Assembly (NCBI GenBank): GCA_934454525.1
Contig: CAKSFM010000001.1
Coordinates: forward strand, 109,502-173,501
Length of the DNA stretch: 64,000 bases
Direction of reading: 5' to 3'
From: an uncultured Clostridia bacterium
Lineage (GTDB): Bacteria > Bacillota > Clostridia > UMGS1883
Below the pieces are notes generated by a model that did not search any database, was not told the origin of the DNA, and saw only the letters and a list, made by a program, of their open reading frames with translations. This document shows positions 2,881 to 8,323 of the stretch, in pieces. Position 1 is the first letter of the stretch, and every line of letters begins with the position of its first letter. The position numbers and the translations under genes are program-made.

Positions 2881-3105
2881 CTAAATATAAATTATAACAA
2901 AAATACTGCTGCCGGTCAATCGGCATAATTCACAAATAACAAAGGCAAAATTTGCTGCCATTGTCACCGCTCCCCTTGGGAATAGGGCACGATATATACC
3001 GGACATATCATAATTATGGCACAAAAGCGCATATGTCAGAGTAAAAAGGTGACTATATGCATTGCCTTTTGTATTTCCAAAATTCCCCGATTTTCCCGCA
3101 CCCAT
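2881..3105 (-). pseudogene. Remnant of a toxin-module start: the first 16 codons 'MGAGKSGNFGNTKGNA' are fused to non-coding sequence
   Basis: The N-terminal 16 aa and upstream 5' UTR hairpin are identical to the toxin genes at 4311 and 7244. Downstream of the junction at about 3057 the reading frame is the antisense of a spoIIID-upstream-like sequence. Confidence 0.7.
2976..3060. repeat. Diverged duplicate of the spoIIID upstream region/RBS (compare 7955-8053)
   Basis: 'ttgggaata...aaaagcgcatatgtYagagtRaaaagg...ctatatgc' is shared. The core 3023-3060 matches 8016-8053 at high identity. A microhomology junction 'atgc' is visible at 3057-3060. Confidence 0.7.
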
Positions 3106-3111
3106 TAAGCA

Positions 3112-3146
3112 GTCACCTGCTTCCCGGAATAAAGGAAGCAGGTGAT
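3112..3146 (-). promoter_or_regulatory. 5' UTR hairpin (13-bp perfect stem) whose 3' arm contains the SD-like AGGUGA, 7 nt before the toxin-module AUG (remnant copy)
   Basis: 'gtcacctgcttcc cggaataaa ggaagcaggtga'. The same stem sequence occurs at 4318-4352 with a different loop. Confidence 0.6.
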
Positions 3147-3151
3147 TTGTC

Positions 3152-3694
3152 CTATAATATTCTGCTTGTTCTAGTTACATTCACTTTGTTGGCACCATCG
3201 TCCGACCAGGAATCAACAACCTGTGATATAGGAAATATAGAATTGTAATTATCATGTTCAGATATAGTTATATCTTCGGAAAACCATATGTCTCTTGAAA
3301 ACATTATAATTTTAGTTTCCATCCTTATGATGATCGCCTGATCAAATGCAATTTCAAATTCACCATCATTTATACAAATTGCATCATTTATAATTTCTAC
3401 ATCGTTAATAGTTTCGCCTACATCAAATGTCTCAAATGGTTCTTCGCAATACGGCTTAAAAGTACTATTGCCATCTACCAGTTTACACTTAAAGCCAGCC
3501 ACCTCTTCTTCTGTATCAAAAAAAGGGGTTGTTCTTTGAAGATTGGTAATCTCTACTGATAATTTATCTGTATTGATTCTCAAGTTCCCATATACATTGC
3601 CGAAAATCTTTCCACACTCATATGAAATAAATTTAGATCCTTTTATGTTTTTTAGCATTTTTTCCATATTATTATTTAAAGTTACATATATCAT
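3152..3694 (-). CDS. Hypothetical acidic protein; putative immunity protein for the toxin at 3709-4311
   Basis: The start is 14 nt after the toxin stop, with RBS AAAGGAGTG. 180 aa, acidic, no recognised enzymatic motifs. Confidence 0.45.
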   Translation of the reverse strand: MIYVTLNNNMEKMLKNIKGSKFISYECGKIFGNVYGNLRINTDKLSVEITNLQRTTPFFDTEEEVAGFKCKLVDGNSTFKPYCEEPFETFDVGETINDVEIINDAICINDGEFEIAFDQAIIIRMETKIIMFSRDIWFSEDITISEHDNYNSIFPISQVVDSWSDDGANKVNVTRTSRIL

Positions 3695-3708: not shown

Positions 3709-4311
3709 TTATTTTATAAAATGGATTTTTTGCGGTTTAATTTTACCAGGTGTTTTAACAGTTATTTCTACCGCCGGACTATTTGGAGTCTTTGTGATTA
3801 CCCTATAAACAATATTCGATTCATCGGAAAATATTGTTTGCACTCCTTTGCCATTTGGTAAAATCCTTTCGATTCCACCTTTGCTGAGTTTTTTGTAAAA
3901 ATCGGCAGAAGATTTTATAGGGTCATTACTTTTAAATACTCTAGTATTTTTTCCCTTTGTTCCAAAATAACCATTTTCCCCAAGATTATATTTCTTAGCA
4001 ACACTTTTAGCATTATCCACCACACTTGAAATCTTTGAAGTTTTCTTAGTTGTCTTAGCGGCATCTACCGCTTTATCTGCCATTTTAGCAAGTTTTGCCG
4101 TGTCTGCAACTTCTCCGGCAAAGGGGATTATTCCCACAGCGTCAAGTCCTGCCGATAGCAAATCGCCCCGCAGCAAATCAACAGGTATTGACGCAAAATC
4201 AGTAAATGTGTCAAGTCCGGGAATTAGCGATGCCGCCGTTAAAAGGTTGCTTAATGCATCTAATGCATTGCCTTTTGTATTCCCAAAATTCCCCGATTTT
4301 CCCGCACCCAT
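3709..4311 (-). CDS. Polymorphic-toxin-like protein: shared N-terminal module (possible pre-toxin domain) plus a unique C-terminal domain of unknown function
   Basis: The N-terminal 85 aa 'MGAGKSGNFGNTKGNALDALSNLLTAASLIPGLDTFTDFASIPVDLLRGDLLSAGLDAVGIIPFAGEVADTAKLAKMADKA' are identical to the genes at 6669-7244 and 5119-5679. The C-terminus '...YRVITKTPNSPAVEITVKTPGKIKPQKIHFIK' is divergent. Confidence 0.6.
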   Translation of the reverse strand: MGAGKSGNFGNTKGNALDALSNLLTAASLIPGLDTFTDFASIPVDLLRGDLLSAGLDAVGIIPFAGEVADTAKLAKMADKAVDAAKTTKKTSKISSVVDNAKSVAKKYNLGENGYFGTKGKNTRVFKSNDPIKSSADFYKKLSKGGIERILPNGKGVQTIFSDESNIVYRVITKTPNSPAVEITVKTPGKIKPQKIHFIK

Positions 4312-4317
4312 TAAGCA

Positions 4318-4352
4318 GTCACCTGCTTCCTGAAATAGAGGAAGCAGGTGAC
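4318..4352 (-). promoter_or_regulatory. 5' UTR hairpin (13-bp perfect stem, 9-nt loop) sequestering the SD (AGGUGA) of the toxin gene at 4311
   Basis: The minus-strand mRNA reads 'GUCACCUGCUUCC-UCUAUUUCA-GGAAGCAGGUGAC-UGCUUA-AUG'. No U-tract follows, so this is not a terminator. Confidence 0.6.
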
Positions 4353-4424: not shown

Positions 4425-5099
4425 TTAAATCCTAATAGTTTTATTAAACACTCCTTCAAATTTATCATCAAGCACAATATCTTTGTGGTAATGACCAAAA
4501 AACCATTTTTTAAAAATAAGTTTATTTTTTATACTCTCAAAAAAATCTGTCAGCTTGTTTTTTTCATATGTTGGAGCAATAGCATTTTGAACAGATGTCG
4601 GCGCACAATGGGTTATCACATAATCGACCTCAAAATTATTCTTTTTAAGGTTCTTTTCCGCATTACTATATTCTTGTTCATTTGGCATTTCAGCACACCA
4701 CCAGTTTTTCCTTTCTATTCTGTACTCTTTATCGTGGGAATCGGCTCCGCCAAAGACGAAGACTTTTTTCCCGTCAATCGTATATGTCTCTCCACGTATT
4801 AAATGGTAAATTCCATCATCAACTTTGTGTGCAGTTCCTCCGCAAAGTTCTACTATCGGAAGAGAATAAAGCATATCAAAATTTTCATGATTACCGTCAA
4901 TAAACAGTGTTGTAAAGTTTTTGTTTTTAAGCCACTTTATCCAATATTTTTCCTCATTGCTGCCGTCCCAAACACCACCAAAATCGCCGCATATAATCAC
5001 ATAATCATTTTTAGTCATTTCTTTTTGCTGCGGAAAATGCTTTGCAGAAAGTTTTTGAATATCAACCGGAATATGTGTATCACCTGTAATATATATCAT
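4425..5099 (-). CDS. Calcineurin-like metallophosphoesterase (MPP superfamily), sitting in the immunity-gene position after the ParB-like toxin module
   Basis: Motifs 'GDTHIP', 'ICGDFGG', 'DGNHEN', 'HCAP' and 'GHYH'. RBS AGGAAGGATGG. The start is 19 nt after the stop of 5119-5679. Confidence 0.7.
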   Translation of the reverse strand: MIYITGDTHIPVDIQKLSAKHFPQQKEMTKNDYVIICGDFGGVWDGSNEEKYWIKWLKNKNFTTLFIDGNHENFDMLYSLPIVELCGGTAHKVDDGIYHLIRGETYTIDGKKVFVFGGADSHDKEYRIERKNWWCAEMPNEQEYSNAEKNLKKNNFEVDYVITHCAPTSVQNAIAPTYEKNKLTDFFESIKNKLIFKKWFFGHYHKDIVLDDKFEGVFNKTIRI

Positions 5100-5118
5100 T
5101 GATAACCATCCTTCCTAT

Positions 5119-5679
5119 TTAATCAAACCAAAGCAAGTCATTAATTGTTTTATATCCTTTATAAGGTAACGAGACCCTTTGAGTTGGAATTTTATCCAAT
5201 CCAAGTTGTTTTGCTGCCCTCAATCTATGATGTCCGTCAACAACATACTTTGTACCTTTATACTCAACATACTTAATAGGTTCAATAATACCATTTTTTA
5301 TGCTTTCCACTAAATTTTTATATTGTTTTTTGCTCAATGTTAGCTTATGAGTTTGTGTTAACTTTGTCGGCGAAATTCTTTTTATACCTTTAGTAAAATC
5401 CGTAGCTTTGTCAGCAGCCTTAGCGGCATCTGCCGCTTTATCTGCCATTTTAGCAAGTTTTGCCGTGTCTGCAACTTCTCCGGCAAAGGGGATTATTCCC
5501 ACAGCGTCAAGTCCTGCCGATAGCAAATCGCCCCGCAGCAAATCAACAGGTATTGACGCAAAATCAGTAAATGTGTCAAGTCCGGGAATTAGCGATGCCG
5601 CCGTTAAAAGGTTGCTTAATGCATCTAATGCATTGCCTTTTGTATTCCCAATCTTGATGAATATTCTAATTGCTCGATT
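5119..5679 (-). CDS. Orphan polymorphic-toxin module lacking the first 15 codons; C-terminal ParB/Srx-like (DGHHR) nuclease-type domain
   Basis: The shared N-module runs from '...GNTKGNALDAL' onward. Nucleotide identity with the other copies ends at 5650. The C-terminus is 'IKYVEYKGTKYVVDGHHRLRAAKQLGLDKIPTQRV'. No ATG sits at the module start, so the true start is unclear (TTG or in-frame). Confidence 0.55.
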   Translation of the reverse strand, partial: NRAIRIFIKIGNTKGNALDALSNLLTAASLIPGLDTFTDFASIPVDLLRGDLLSAGLDAVGIIPFAGEVADTAKLAKMADKAADAAKAADKATDFTKGIKRISPTKLTQTHKLTLSKKQYKNLVESIKNGIIEPIKYVEYKGTKYVVDGHHRLRAAKQLGLDKIPTQRVSLPYKGYKTINDLLWFD

Positions 5680-5713
5680 CTAATTGACGGAATCGAGCAA
5701 TGCATTGTTAATA

Positions 5714-6028
5714 TTAACTTATTTGTATTTTTCCCGCAAATATTTCTTTAGGAAAGTTTAAGTAATTCACCATAAAATAATCATCTTCAGTTATACTTAT
5801 AGGCGGCTCACCAGATATGCTAATCCCCTTGAAAATAAAAGACCAAAACTCCTCATATCCTTCCTCGTCCATATCACAATCAGACTCATCCTCAATATAA
5901 GAATCAAATATTGCCCGAGCCTCGCTTCCATCTTCCCATTTTAATATTAGTTCTTGGTCTTCATAGTTATCAATGTTATTAATAAATGTTCCTATAATTT
6001 TTTCTTCCCTGTCATTCCAAAAATACAT
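5714..6028 (-). CDS. Small acidic protein, putative orphan immunity protein
   Basis: 'MYFWNDREEKIIGTF...DESDCDMDEEGYEEFWSF'. RBS GGAGGAAG. It immediately follows the stop of the toxin C-terminal fragment at 6031-6159. Confidence 0.45.
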   Translation of the reverse strand: MYFWNDREEKIIGTFINNIDNYEDQELILKWEDGSEARAIFDSYIEDESDCDMDEEGYEEFWSFIFKGISISGEPPISITEDDYFMVNYLNFPKEIFAGKIQIS

Positions 6029-6030
6029 TT

Positions 6031-6159
6031 TTACTTCCTCCAATTAATTGGTTTTTCTGGCACAAGATGTGTTCCAGATTTGGAATAATGTATTATCCCA
6101 ACCGTGGTATCATATGATTTTCCCGTCTTTGGGTCAACATATTTTCCTATTATTTTTTT
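6031..6159 (-). pseudogene. C-terminal fragment of a degraded toxin gene (no start codon). Its stop overlaps the RBS of the downstream acidic gene
   Basis: Open frame 'KKIIGKYVDPKTGKSYDTTVGIIHYSKSGTHLVPEKPINWRK*' with no ATG/GTG/TTG start. It is bounded upstream by TAA at 6160-6162. Confidence 0.4.
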
Positions 6160-6200
6160 TTAATTAACAGTTTCTCTGTTTGTGCCAATCTTTCGACCTT

Positions 6201-6267
6201 ATTGAAAATCAATCGATGGTGAAAGCCGCTGCAAAGAACTTTGCTCTTTCCAAATCGAGTGTACATA
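6201..6267 (+). repeat. 67-bp duplicate of an internal spoIIID segment (matches 8102-8168, codons 17-38), 2 mismatches
   Basis: 'attgaaaatcaatcgaYggtgaRagccgctgcaaagaactttgctctttccaaatcgagtgtacata' matches. Confidence 0.85.
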
Positions 6268-6310
6268 CAATTGTAACAAGACAGCAACCTTTTATATAGA
6301 AGTGGCTTCA

Positions 6311-6652
6311 CTAACAAGTTTGCACAGATACAGATGAAGCTTTAATTTCAATTTCAATATATTTCCCGGATAAATCATTAAACACCGTCAGTACTATCTC
6401 ATTTTCATTGTTTGATACCACTTTTGAAATTTCATCACTGTTTATCCGATATGTACTATAATGAAGATTCGTACATTCACTAAATTTTATAACTATATTA
6501 CCAGTTTCCGGCATTTCATCCGTATAACCATCTTGCTGCCAATAGCAAAAATCAACATATAACTTAACAGTTGCCGTTTTTTTATTATAATCAATTTCTT
6601 CCAAAAGACTATCATGCAAGTTGTAATTCTGAATAAATTCTTTTATTGTCAT
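6311..6652 (-). CDS. Hypothetical protein; putative immunity protein for the toxin at 6669-7244
   Basis: Starts 'MTIKEFIQNYNLHD...' at 6652 with RBS GGAGGG, 16 nt after the toxin stop. The ORF-track start at 6718 would overlap the toxin. Confidence 0.45.
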   Translation of the reverse strand: MTIKEFIQNYNLHDSLLEEIDYNKKTATVKLYVDFCYWQQDGYTDEMPETGNIVIKFSECTNLHYSTYRINSDEISKVVSNNENEIVLTVFNDLSGKYIEIEIKASSVSVQTC

Positions 6653-6668
6653 AAAATTATCCCTCCAA

Positions 6669-7244
6669 TTATGGTATGATATGTGACTTTTTAGAGTTTT
6701 TCGGCACTGGGTTTCCAAATTTATCTAAATAGTAATCATGTTTGCCTGTTGAGTTTGGATTTAAAATATGATAATGATCCTTTCCTCCATATCCTCCCAT
6801 GCTTCTTTTCCCTTTGTGAAACCTTATTGTATAACCGTTCTTTTTGAACATCCTTGATGTTGTATTCTTCTTCATTGCTGCCGGAGTTATTTCTTCCCAA
6901 CCGTTTTCCACTAGTTTCGATGGAGTTTTGTGTAATTTCAGTATTTTAACCCCCGATTTAGTAGCATCCGTAGCTTTGTCAGCAGCCTTAGCGGCATCTG
7001 CCGCTTTATCTGCCATTTTAGCAAGTTTTGCCGTGTCTGCAACTTCTCCGGCAAAGGGGATTATTCCCACAGCGTCAAGTCCTGCCGATAGCAAATCGCC
7101 CCGCAGCAAATCAACAGGTATTGACGCAAAATCAGTAAATGTGTCAAGTCCGGGAATTAGCGATGCCGCCGTTAAAAGGTTGCTTAATGCATCTAATGCA
7201 TTGCCTTTTGTATTCCCAAAATTCCCCGATTTTCCCGCACCCAT
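6669..7244 (-). CDS. Polymorphic-toxin-like protein: shared N-module plus a C-terminal HNH-like (H-Y-H...N...H) candidate nuclease domain
   Basis: The N-terminal 100 aa are identical to the other copies. The C-terminus is 'GGKDHYHILNPNSTGKHDYYLDKFGNPV'. The ATG overlaps the stop of the upstream ORF (TAATG), giving translational coupling. No UTR hairpin is present here. Confidence 0.55.
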   Translation of the reverse strand: MGAGKSGNFGNTKGNALDALSNLLTAASLIPGLDTFTDFASIPVDLLRGDLLSAGLDAVGIIPFAGEVADTAKLAKMADKAADAAKAADKATDATKSGVKILKLHKTPSKLVENGWEEITPAAMKKNTTSRMFKKNGYTIRFHKGKRSMGGYGGKDHYHILNPNSTGKHDYYLDKFGNPVPKNSKKSHIIP

Positions 7245-7807
7245 TAAGCAGTCACCTGCTTCCTGGACTTTGAAATTTCACTTTCAAAATGCACAATATT
7301 GATGCCCATATCCTTATATGGCTTAAAAATACTTTCCGGTGCACCGCCATAAACTACTATAGTTTCAGGCGATAGCCTTTGCACCATACGGGCGAGACCT
7401 ATTTCAAAAAAGATTTTATCCTCTTTGTGTTTAATACATCCGTGTGTCCCTACCGCGACAGTTTTATTTTCTTCTACCGCGTCAAAACAGAATGAGAACG
7501 TCCTCTCATCCCCAAATCTCACATTGGGGATAATTTCAACTCCGTTATTTTGAAGCCAGACCGATAAAGCTCTGCCTCTATATGTATTCCACATTTGCAT
7601 GCAAAGCGGCATATTGCGATACAGGCTGAAATCCGGCGAAATTATGCCCTTGAACTTTTTGAGTTTCGCAAGGTACTGTTTGGGATTATGCCATAGGCAT
7701 AACCTCATCTTTTTCAAACTGAAAAATATATGTAAACGTTGCATAGTTTTTTTCATTTCCCACATAAGTGTATAAATGTGGCAAAATATTGTCTTTTTCA
7801 GCGTCAA
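7244..7807 (-). CDS. Hypothetical protein translationally coupled to the first toxin gene; the true start is probably internal (about MPLCMQMW/MQMW)
   Basis: The C-terminal 110 aa 'NGVEIIPNVRFGDERTFSFCFDAVEENKTVAVGTHGC...IVVYGGAPESIFKPYKDMGINIVHFE' look protein-like. The N-terminal 70 aa look like a non-coding translation. Confidence 0.35.
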   Translation of the reverse strand: MTLKKTIFCHIYTLMWEMKKTMQRLHIFFSLKKMRLCLWHNPKQYLAKLKKFKGIISPDFSLYRNMPLCMQMWNTYRGRALSVWLQNNGVEIIPNVRFGDERTFSFCFDAVEENKTVAVGTHGCIKHKEDKIFFEIGLARMVQRLSPETIVVYGGAPESIFKPYKDMGINIVHFESEISKSRKQVTA

Positions 7808-8053
7808 GCAAGTGGGCCGTTATATCAACAACGGCAGTACACAGGCTTGATTTACCCGAGCCGTTTTTACCGATTTTGGAAATGAGTAATAAAACAAGGT
7901 TCTTTAAAGATTTTCAGGAATTTTACCTGTAAGGGTTTTAGCGCTTCGGCTGTTTTGGGAATAATAGCGCCCGATAACTTTTGCAATAATGCCGCCCTTT
8001 ATCATATTCGGGCATAAAAGCGCATATGTTAGAGTGAAAAGGGGGCTATATGC

Positions 8054-8323
8054 GTGAAAGACTATATCGAACAGCGCGCCTTAATGCTGGCAGATTACAT
8101 AATTGAAAATCAATCGACGGTGAGAGCCGCTGCAAAGAACTTTGCTCTTTCCAAATCGAGTGTACATAAAGATGTTACGGACAGACTGCTTAAAATTGAC
8201 CCGACACTTGCGCGAACCGTTAAAGCCGTGCTTGACAAAAACAAGGCGGAGCGGCACATCCGCGGCGGAATGGCAACAAAACGCAAGTACGAGGAAAAGA
8301 AGCGCCGATACGCTAATATCTGA
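8054..8323 (+). CDS. spoIIID: Stage III sporulation protein D (SpoIIID), mother-cell transcription factor
   Basis: '(M)KDYIEQRALMLADYIIENQSTVRAAAKNFALSKSSVHKDVTDRL...IRGGMATKRKYE' closely matches B. subtilis SpoIIID. GTG start with RBS AAAGGGGG. Confidence 0.9.
   Translation: MKDYIEQRALMLADYIIENQSTVRAAAKNFALSKSSVHKDVTDRLLKIDPTLARTVKAVLDKNKAERHIRGGMATKRKYEEKKRRYANI

Follow-up and report, generated by a model that had tools for sequence, protein, structure and literature searches.

The window described here is a stretch of 64,000 nucleotides from the genome of a gut Clostridia bacterium. Between positions 5679 and 4425, on the minus strand, it carries one toxin-immunity cassette. The first member of the cassette (5119-5679) is a toxin module that ends in a ParB-fold domain of the Tox-ParB type. 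The second (4425-5099) is a 224-residue metallophosphoesterase (MPP), which has its own ribosome-binding site and lies in the position of the immunity gene. The ParB part is a silent, 5'-truncated spare, and the cassette belongs to a decayed polymorphic-toxin array in the Clostridia chromosome. We describe the two members, their association in other genomes, the array around them, and what the association suggests about the killing mechanism of ParB-fold toxins and the way in which it is countered.

The minus-strand frame from 5679 to 5119 is open, and its last ~90 residues (5119-5409) match the Pfam family ParB_N with 28.5 bits (gathering cut-off 26.3). They carry the motif VVDGHHR. A profile search with this domain returned a plant sulfiredoxin (Srx; 6ky4, E 6e-7) and then ParB, Noc, SerK and SbnI, and NCBIfam agrees with these ParB/Srx-type matches. 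The AlphaFold2 (AF2) model of the domain has a confidence score (pLDDT) of 86. Foldseek aligned it to the NTP-binding domain of ParB/Noc and to Srx, SbnI and SerK, with query TM-scores (TMq) of 0.65-0.70 and a root-mean-square deviation of ~2 A. The VVDGHHR motif is invariant in nine of nine aligned sequences and in both of the partner-linked groups described below. It is present in 13 of the 14 sequences of alignment A3, the remaining one having NGHHR. Domains 57-61% identical to that of the window end proteins of more than 1100 residues at two of the retrieved comparison loci, which are given L-numbers here (L093, L096); the L093 protein was checked and is an RHS-repeat protein. A homologue search with the 85-residue core of the domain gave 28 proteins, all of them short. 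ParB is one of ten alternative C-termini among the toxins of this system, and the C-termini in the array are all basic, with isoelectric points (pI) of ~10.

Tox-ParB domains are defined by the DGHHR motif, and their listed immunity families are Imm20, Imm27 and Imm-SuFu (Zhang et al. 2012, PMC3482391). The domain in the window has the ParB/Srx fold, the DGHHR motif and the C-terminal position of a polymorphic toxin with exchangeable modules and orphan cassettes. Together, the domain matches, the motif and the relatives at the ends of RHS proteins identify it as a genuine polymorphic-toxin warhead. The C-terminal warheads of RHS proteins belong to its family, as does, by description, the ATPase toxin ToxB carried by CdiA.

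The array toxins share a constant region of ~95 residues at their N-terminus (MGAGKSGNFGNTKGNALDAL...), called PTN here, with the conserved start MG[AG]Gxx G[ND]FGNTxG. In the ParB module this region is partial. It begins at ~5652, where homology to the shared PTN sequence starts at 'GNTKGNALD'; ~9 initial codons (MGAGKSGNF) have been lost, as has the ribosome-binding site. A deletion has removed one residue that the relatives of the module retain, and the earliest start codon in frame is a TTG, at 5541. Lacking a start codon and a ribosome-binding site, the cassette is silent and an orphan. Damage is also seen at the array head, where the DUF4417 gene is without its 5' end. The original prediction, made from the letters of the window, had described a ParB/Srx-like toxin module at 5119-5679 followed by an MPP. 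The nature of the module is confirmed by the ParB_N and sulfiredoxin profile matches, the AF2 fold, the motif and the RHS-end relatives. The prediction needs one correction, in that the module is 5'-truncated. The coordinates, the strong ribosome-binding site in the gap and the MPP motifs were all correct as described.

The stop codon of the ParB module is followed by 19 nt (ataggaaggatggttatca), which contain GGAAGGA, and then by the ATG of the MPP at 5099. The protein matches Pfam Metallophos (E 3.8e-12) and phrog_1649 (E 6.7e-35) and contains GDTHIP, GDFGG, GNHEN and GHYH. All five motifs of the superfamily (GDxH, GD, GNHE, H, GHxH) are present. Its metal-binding and catalytic residues D7, H9, D39, N70, H71, H164, H203 and H205 are intact in the window. 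These eight residues are invariant in 82 of 82 sequences (49 from the same clade and 33 outgroup members), down to 44% identity. The AF2 model (pLDDT 92.7) has the canonical beta-sandwich fold of MPPs, with Foldseek matches to Dbr1, PptH, LpxH, GpdQ and Mre11 (E 1e-6 to 1e-3, TMq ~0.5-0.65). It is closest to phosphodiesterases that act on nucleic-acid or nucleotide-linked substrates, and protein phosphatases are poorer matches. A sequence search of the PDB gave a best E of 0.08 for the MPP, and only the fold search was informative. PADLOC gave a weak match to PDC-S10. The MPP falls outside the immunity families recorded for Tox-ParB, as Pfam returns Metallophos and Metallophos_2 only and NCBIfam gives a weak match to YfcE.

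The pair recurs in other genomes. Near-duplicate loci were handled by using a species-level subset, with one genome per species. In a retrieval of MPP homologues, 21 of 80 species-level genome loci had a ParB C-terminal module immediately before the MPP. All 21 are among the 47 loci in which MPP identity is at least 53%, and at each the ParB end precedes the MPP by 4-22 nt. The usual order at the ParB-linked loci is DUF4417, PTN-ParB, MPP. The remaining MPP loci are mostly short contigs, or arrays that combine other PTN toxins with immunity-type genes and have no ParB. The reverse retrieval, by the ParB domain alone, covered 48 metagenome loci. The MPP was the next gene in six of these, namely the five closest (at least 68% identity) and L108 (56%). 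In 29 others the domain is followed by the second partner family described below, and in the remainder by other small ORFs. Additional pairs were found at L129 and L135-143. The search for co-occurrence of ParB toxin domains and MPP genes that the original prediction had proposed yielded 43 adjacent pairs, including those in 21 species-level genomes; for this count the ParB profile match had to reach the end of the model. Among the loci examined, no ParB domain of the MPP-linked clade was found without the MPP.

The association is specific to the ParB type. When PTN toxins were clustered by C-terminus and the downstream genes by family, ten toxin types and ten partner families corresponded strictly one to one. 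Over all loci, the MPP directly follows the ParB type (T1) in 33 of 33 cases and other toxin types in 0 of 27. In species-level genomes the figures are 19/19 and 0/15 (Fisher p = 5e-10), the MPP being present in every such locus. The divergence of ParB domains and of their MPPs is correlated (r = 0.88), and the two genes have been inherited together as a cassette, judging by comparison of the loci. Two of these, L135 and L136, share one chromosomal position, with metK and rpoB on either side. In L135 the ParB-MPP pair is the primary cassette, directly after DUF4417. In L136 a newer toxin and immunity pair has pushed the intact ParB-MPP unit downstream, as in the window.

A second family of partners serves related domains. 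Twenty-nine sister ParB domains (50-64% identical, some of them on RHS proteins) are followed by an acidic family of ~145 residues that starts with MA[IV]WQF, termed WQF here. No fixed difference separates the MPP-linked from the WQF-linked ParB domains, and the invariant core is common to both groups. The two partners are mutually exclusive, and never occur together with one ParB; WQF is absent from all MPP loci and from the window. WQF had no match in Pfam or the PDB, the source annotation being 'hypothetical protein' only. The family probably consists of Tox-ParB immunity proteins that have yet to be catalogued. The metagenome loci that carry it (L086-L120) include Firmicutes-like and high-GC contigs.

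The MPP also occurs without ParB, in 14 arrays and at about nine toxin-free sites of the same clade. A single clade mixes ParB-linked, array-orphan and toxin-free members, and frameshifted copies are present in L004, L018, L038 and L064. More distant clades (44-52% identity) are never linked to toxins, and the wider family exceeds 7900 homologs. Several outgroup members lie directly after nrdD-nrdG-dut in Ruminococcus-type genomes (L049, L053, L060, L062, L068), and one lies in a faecal phage contig (L145, MT835745.1) between dCMP deaminase and ThyX. These neighbourhoods suggest an ancestral role in (deoxy)nucleotide metabolism. In another outgroup clade (L069-L072, L080) the MPP adjoins an AAA_15/21 ATPase and a RloB-like gene (~200 residues), a defence-type pair.

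The breadth of the family, its relatives in phages and in nrdDG-dut operons, and the same-clade copies without a nearby toxin could be taken to mean that the MPP is unrelated nucleotide-metabolism cargo that hitch-hikes beside ParB, with self-protection absent, unnecessary or encoded elsewhere. We regard this as highly unlikely given the strict specificity for the ParB type, the constant position of the MPP start ~4-22 nt after the ParB stop, the movement of the two genes as a unit (L135/L136) and the mutual exclusivity with WQF. In addition, each of the other toxin types has a dedicated partner at exactly the position of the MPP, and no alternative partner is apparent. The presence of a hidden small immunity ORF after the MPP was considered and rejected, as no other conserved ORF accompanies the pair on either strand. 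The idea that the MPP is a landmark gene at the end of the array was rejected as well, because in L082, as in the window, it has further cassettes behind it, and the modules adjoining it are all of the ParB type.

The MPP lies immediately downstream of the toxin, is specific to its type and is co-inherited with it. Orphan and decaying copies of the partner exist, and the toxin is never alone. This asymmetry, the inheritance as a cassette and the mutual exclusivity with WQF together make up the pattern by which comparative genomics usually recognises a cognate immunity gene. From these patterns we conclude that the MPP is very probably the cognate protective gene, in agreement with the original prediction, which had placed it in the immunity slot as the partner of the toxin. 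The prediction had also named conservation of the MPP without toxin modules as a sign against this. About nine members of the clade and the wider family are indeed toxin-free, although orphan immunity genes show the same pattern.

The array that contains the cassette runs on the minus strand from ~7913 to 2881. At its head is a remnant of an AAA_15/21 ATPase (7689-7913, ~75 residues including the P-loop GxNGSGKSS). A deletion has fused it to the DUF4417 gene, at the cost of most of the ATPase and of the first ~60 residues of DUF4417. The C-terminal ~150 residues of the resulting chimeric ORF (7244-7807) are DUF4417 (Pfam E 2e-51), and its stop codon overlaps the toxin ATG (TAATG) at 7244. The primary PTN toxin, of type T2 (6669-7244, 191 residues), is the sole module directly coupled to DUF4417, and its acidic cognate partner I2 follows at 6311-6652 (113 residues, pI 4.5). 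Next comes the 3' remnant of a displaced T4 toxin module (6031-6150, ...YSKSGTHLVPEKPINWRK*), which is still joined to its acidic partner gene. That gene, I4 (5714-6028, 104 residues, pI 4.05), is an orphan immunity-type gene cognate to T4, and the intact T4-I4 pair is found in L038, L020 and L040. After the ParB-MPP cassette the array continues with an orphan PTN toxin of type T3 that has kept its own ATG (3709-4311) and with its acidic cognate partner I3 (3152-3694, 180 residues, pI 4.45). It ends in a terminal PTN fragment (2881-3105) of which the first 16 codons are homologous and the remainder is duplicated sequence from upstream of spoIIID. The partners of the other modules are thus small and acidic, as the original prediction had noted (pI 4.05-4.51, 104-180 residues), whereas the MPP has a pI of 6.1.

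Three copies of a 294-nt PTN DNA repeat are present in the window (5404-5697, 4039-4332 and 6972-7265). Homologous recombination through this repeat could place the ParB-MPP cassette behind DUF4417 and so reactivate the ParB toxin. Perfect hairpins of 13-14 bp lie at 4319-4352 and 3112-3145 on the minus strand (-36 and -27 kcal/mol, z -6.3 and -4.0), just 5' of both orphan PTN genes that retain an ATG. Their arms are GTCACCTGCTTCC-N-GGAAGCAGGTGAC. The 3' arm corresponds to the 3' end of DUF4417 and includes the Shine-Dalgarno-like sequence AGGTGA, and the primary toxin at 7244 has no matching partner arm. They may silence the translation of the orphan toxins or serve as terminators for them.

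Housekeeping genes of the chromosome flank the array on both sides, with spoIIID and genes for an ECF transporter and a PrsA-like isomerase on one side and genes for an APH-family kinase, YpsA and a XerC/D-type integrase on the other. At this distal end the YpsA/DUF1273 (SLOG-family) gene lies at 1015-1590 on the plus strand and the APH-family phosphotransferase gene at 1646-2737 on the minus strand, with no link to the array seen. Two segments duplicate the 5' region of spoIIID. One is at the far end of the array (3013-3060 against 8006-8053, 48 nt, 85% identity) and one is inside it (6196-6277 against 8097-8178, 82 nt, 90% identity). They suggest that the cassettes came one after another, each inserting at the spoIIID 5' end and duplicating target sequence as it did so. 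The configuration seen in the window is present in 16 contigs from several samples. The related contigs are Clostridia or Oscillospirales-type metagenome-assembled genomes from gut samples.

DUF4417 is the constant head of such arrays, as seen in the window and in L001, L005, L129, L135, L136, L139 and L142. It is translationally coupled (TAATG) to short PTN toxins with ten alternative C-termini, each with its own partner. Pfam at E <= 5 gave no credible match for the PTN region, the C-termini of the T2 and T3 toxins, I2, I3, I4 or the WQF family, and NCBIfam gave none for I2, I3, I4 and two full-length PTN toxins. PADLOC has no model that matches DUF4417 or the PTN toxins, a PDB sequence search with DUF4417 returned chance-level matches only, and no paper found in a literature search tied DUF4417 to toxins. 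DUF4417, the PTN toxin and the immunity gene appear to form an undescribed three-component polymorphic toxin system of gut Oscillospirales-like bacteria. An intact ATPase is located 5' of DUF4417 in nine of the searched genome and metagenome loci and in L129, and not in others; the full-length ATPase of L129 matches PADLOC PDC-M12A (E 4e-119) and AbiLi. In L027 (3470-4618, 5170-5976) a MuF-like cysteine-rich segment (...NCDDCN...PMHPNCNCRVG...), identified by eye, precedes the PTN region. On this resemblance the PTN toxins may be tied to the phage-borne MuF polymorphic toxin family.

Some loci place DUF4417 in other company. Fusions of ParB to DUF4417 are enriched in phages (phrog_940; preprint 10.1101/2025.10.10.680097), and short forms exist in which DUF4417 is followed by a ParB protein of 108-133 residues and then by the MPP, those of 108-110 residues being without the PTN linker. 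Some loci lie in defence islands, beside PDC-M12A/AbiLi-like ATPase, type I restriction-modification, Fic and HipA genes. Neither a secretion signal nor a system for secretion is apparent. Given the loci in defence islands, the system as a whole could conceivably act in defence inside the cell. These observations would fit a phage-derived unit of three enzymes, acting in DNA or nucleotide modification or in defence, in which the MPP is a co-worker of ParB and not its antidote, and the array reflects the swapping of effector domains in intracellular defence. We consider this a rather remote prospect. Ten unrelated C-terminal modules, all of them basic, are found behind DUF4417 and have partners of their own, and the nearest relatives of the ParB domain are RHS warheads with a downstream partner. 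Moreover, the MPP is often alone and ParB never is, and ParB-MPP pairs also occur behind MuF-like or other N-terminal regions without DUF4417 directly upstream (L027, L085, L037, L043).

If the MPP is the protective gene, it likely protects by catalysis. The original prediction had likewise suggested enzymatic reversal instead of binding, which is plausible and the reading that we favour. The minimal ParB/Srx fold includes proven ATP-dependent phosphotransferases (Srx, SerK and SbnI). In the simplest mechanism, the ParB-fold toxin domain would phosphorylate or otherwise phospho-modify its target at the expense of ATP. The resulting phosphoester, be it a nucleotide, a metabolite or an adduct on a macromolecule, would be hydrolysed by the binuclear-metal MPP. 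In this the MPP would differ from the small acidic proteins that accompany the other cassettes and the sister ParB toxins, which presumably block their toxins one to one. The features that we count for catalysis are the invariant active site, the near-neutral pI, the phosphodiesterase-like model and the nucleotide-metabolism contexts of the outgroup. Taking both steps together, we give somewhat better than an even chance to the reading that the MPP is an enzymatic immunity protein against the ParB-fold toxin. Reversal of a product by an enzyme would also mean that an orphan copy can protect without matching a particular toxin surface.

Several points weigh against this reading. The related ToxB is neutralised by iToxB, which binds it stoichiometrically and occludes its ATP site (bioRxiv 10.64898/2026.05.05.722872). 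Binding is thus sufficient for ToxB and is presumably the mode of WQF with the sister ParB domains. The only in vitro product of ToxB is ADP, with no modified nucleotide (bioRxiv 10.64898/2026.05.05.722872). The invariant catalytic residues could serve a second, unrelated housekeeping role, and the nine or so toxin-free members of the clade, together with all outgroup members, occur without any toxin. The ParB toxin of the window cannot be expressed without recombination, so the pair is currently no working system. In addition, many of the comparison loci come from metagenome-assembled genomes or from short contigs, with near-duplicates among them, and the trees are neighbour-joining trees of short domains without bootstrap.

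The precedent of iToxB leads to the alternative that the MPP is a cognate immunity protein that binds its toxin one to one and occludes the nucleotide pocket, its phosphoesterase chemistry being irrelevant, or that both modes operate as in Tri1. The small acidic partner of the sister ParB domains, the strict pairing of toxin and partner, and the correlated divergence of ParB and MPP are in keeping with it, although the correlation is equally expected under simple co-inheritance. We judge this alternative unlikely, since the eight catalytic residues stay invariant among sequences as little as 44% identical, the MPP is not acidic, and intact members of the clade are found in toxin-free, housekeeping contexts.

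Beyond enzymatic immunity at this locus, we put forward a wider proposal that is tentative and in our estimate falls short of an even chance. Tox-ParB and ToxB toxins would be ATP-dependent phosphotransferases and not nucleases or mere ATPases. Their product would be a toxic phosphoester, for which a phosphorylated (deoxy)nucleotide or a phospho-adduct is the most likely candidate. In one lineage of Clostridia the usual blocking partner would have given way to a dedicated MPP antidote recruited from deoxynucleotide metabolism, which would protect against any toxin of this class whatever its surface, and the cassette would reside in an undescribed system headed by DUF4417.

ParB-fold toxin domains have been catalogued since 2012. 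Toxicity of a ParB domain on expression has been shown only for CdiA-ToxB, which has the ParB fold and a GNHR motif through which ATP is bound and slowly hydrolysed (bioRxiv 10.64898/2026.05.05.722872). ATP binding is essential, the toxin kills without early ATP depletion or DNA damage, and death is shown not to result from loss of ATP; the authors leave room for a toxic ATP-derived product (bioRxiv 10.64898/2026.05.05.722872). With the mechanism unresolved in that 2026 preprint, the substrate of the MPP would, by hypothesis, be a direct clue to the toxin product. The main value of the pair is this handle on the mechanism of ParB-fold toxins. A literature search found no metallophosphoesterase or calcineurin-like immunity protein and no ParB-MPP pairing described, an absence that is no proof.

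The pair can be compared with several known systems. Like the Tox-ParB modules already described (PMC3482391), the domain of the window has the ParB fold and DGHHR motif, is C-terminal in polymorphic toxins including RHS proteins, and has a dedicated partner gene and orphan cassettes. It differs in its phosphoesterase partner, none being mentioned there, and in the short PTN region behind a DUF4417 gene. With ToxB/iToxB it shares a GxHR phosphate-binding motif (GNHR there, GHHR here), a monomeric minimal fold without DNA-binding or dimerisation domains, and standalone or orphan pairs. ToxB is delivered by contact-dependent inhibition (CDI) in Proteobacteria, unlike the toxin of the window, and its immunity protein is small, dimeric and occludes the ATP site; the two are likened by description, not by sequence. 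Srx, SerK and SbnI provide the best sequence and fold matches, and the size of the domain is near that of Srx. However, these are housekeeping enzymes with known substrates, and the catalytic Cys of Srx (GCHR) is replaced by His (GHHR) in the toxin domain. In its organisation the system resembles S8-PTS (PMC9424270) and the MuF phage toxins (PMC5576092), in which a component that stays constant, upstream or at the N-terminus, is likewise combined with a C-terminal toxin that varies and with an immunity gene. Here the constant partner is DUF4417 instead, and the MuF paper mentions neither DUF4417 nor ParB (PMC5576092).

The closest parallels to the proposed mode of protection are systems in which immunity is enzymatic. 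Bxa-BAH is one such case, where the immunity protein reverses ADP-ribosylation (PMC11699363). The proposed protection would have the same logic, as the gene in the immunity slot would again encode an enzyme that reverses the chemistry of the toxin. In Tre1-Tri1 and DarT-DarG, too, the immunity enzyme reverses the ADP-ribosylation caused by the toxin. If our reading is correct, a phosphoesterase joins the short list of reversal-type immunity proteins, so far mostly ADP-ribosylhydrolases, and the persistence of stand-alone MPPs in gut Clostridia is explained as broad, surface-independent protection. The enzymes of Tre1-Tri1, Bxa-BAH (PMC11699363) and DarT-DarG are ADP-ribosylhydrolases or macrodomains, whereas the candidate described here is a binuclear metallophosphoesterase that would act on a putative phospho- or nucleotidyl product.

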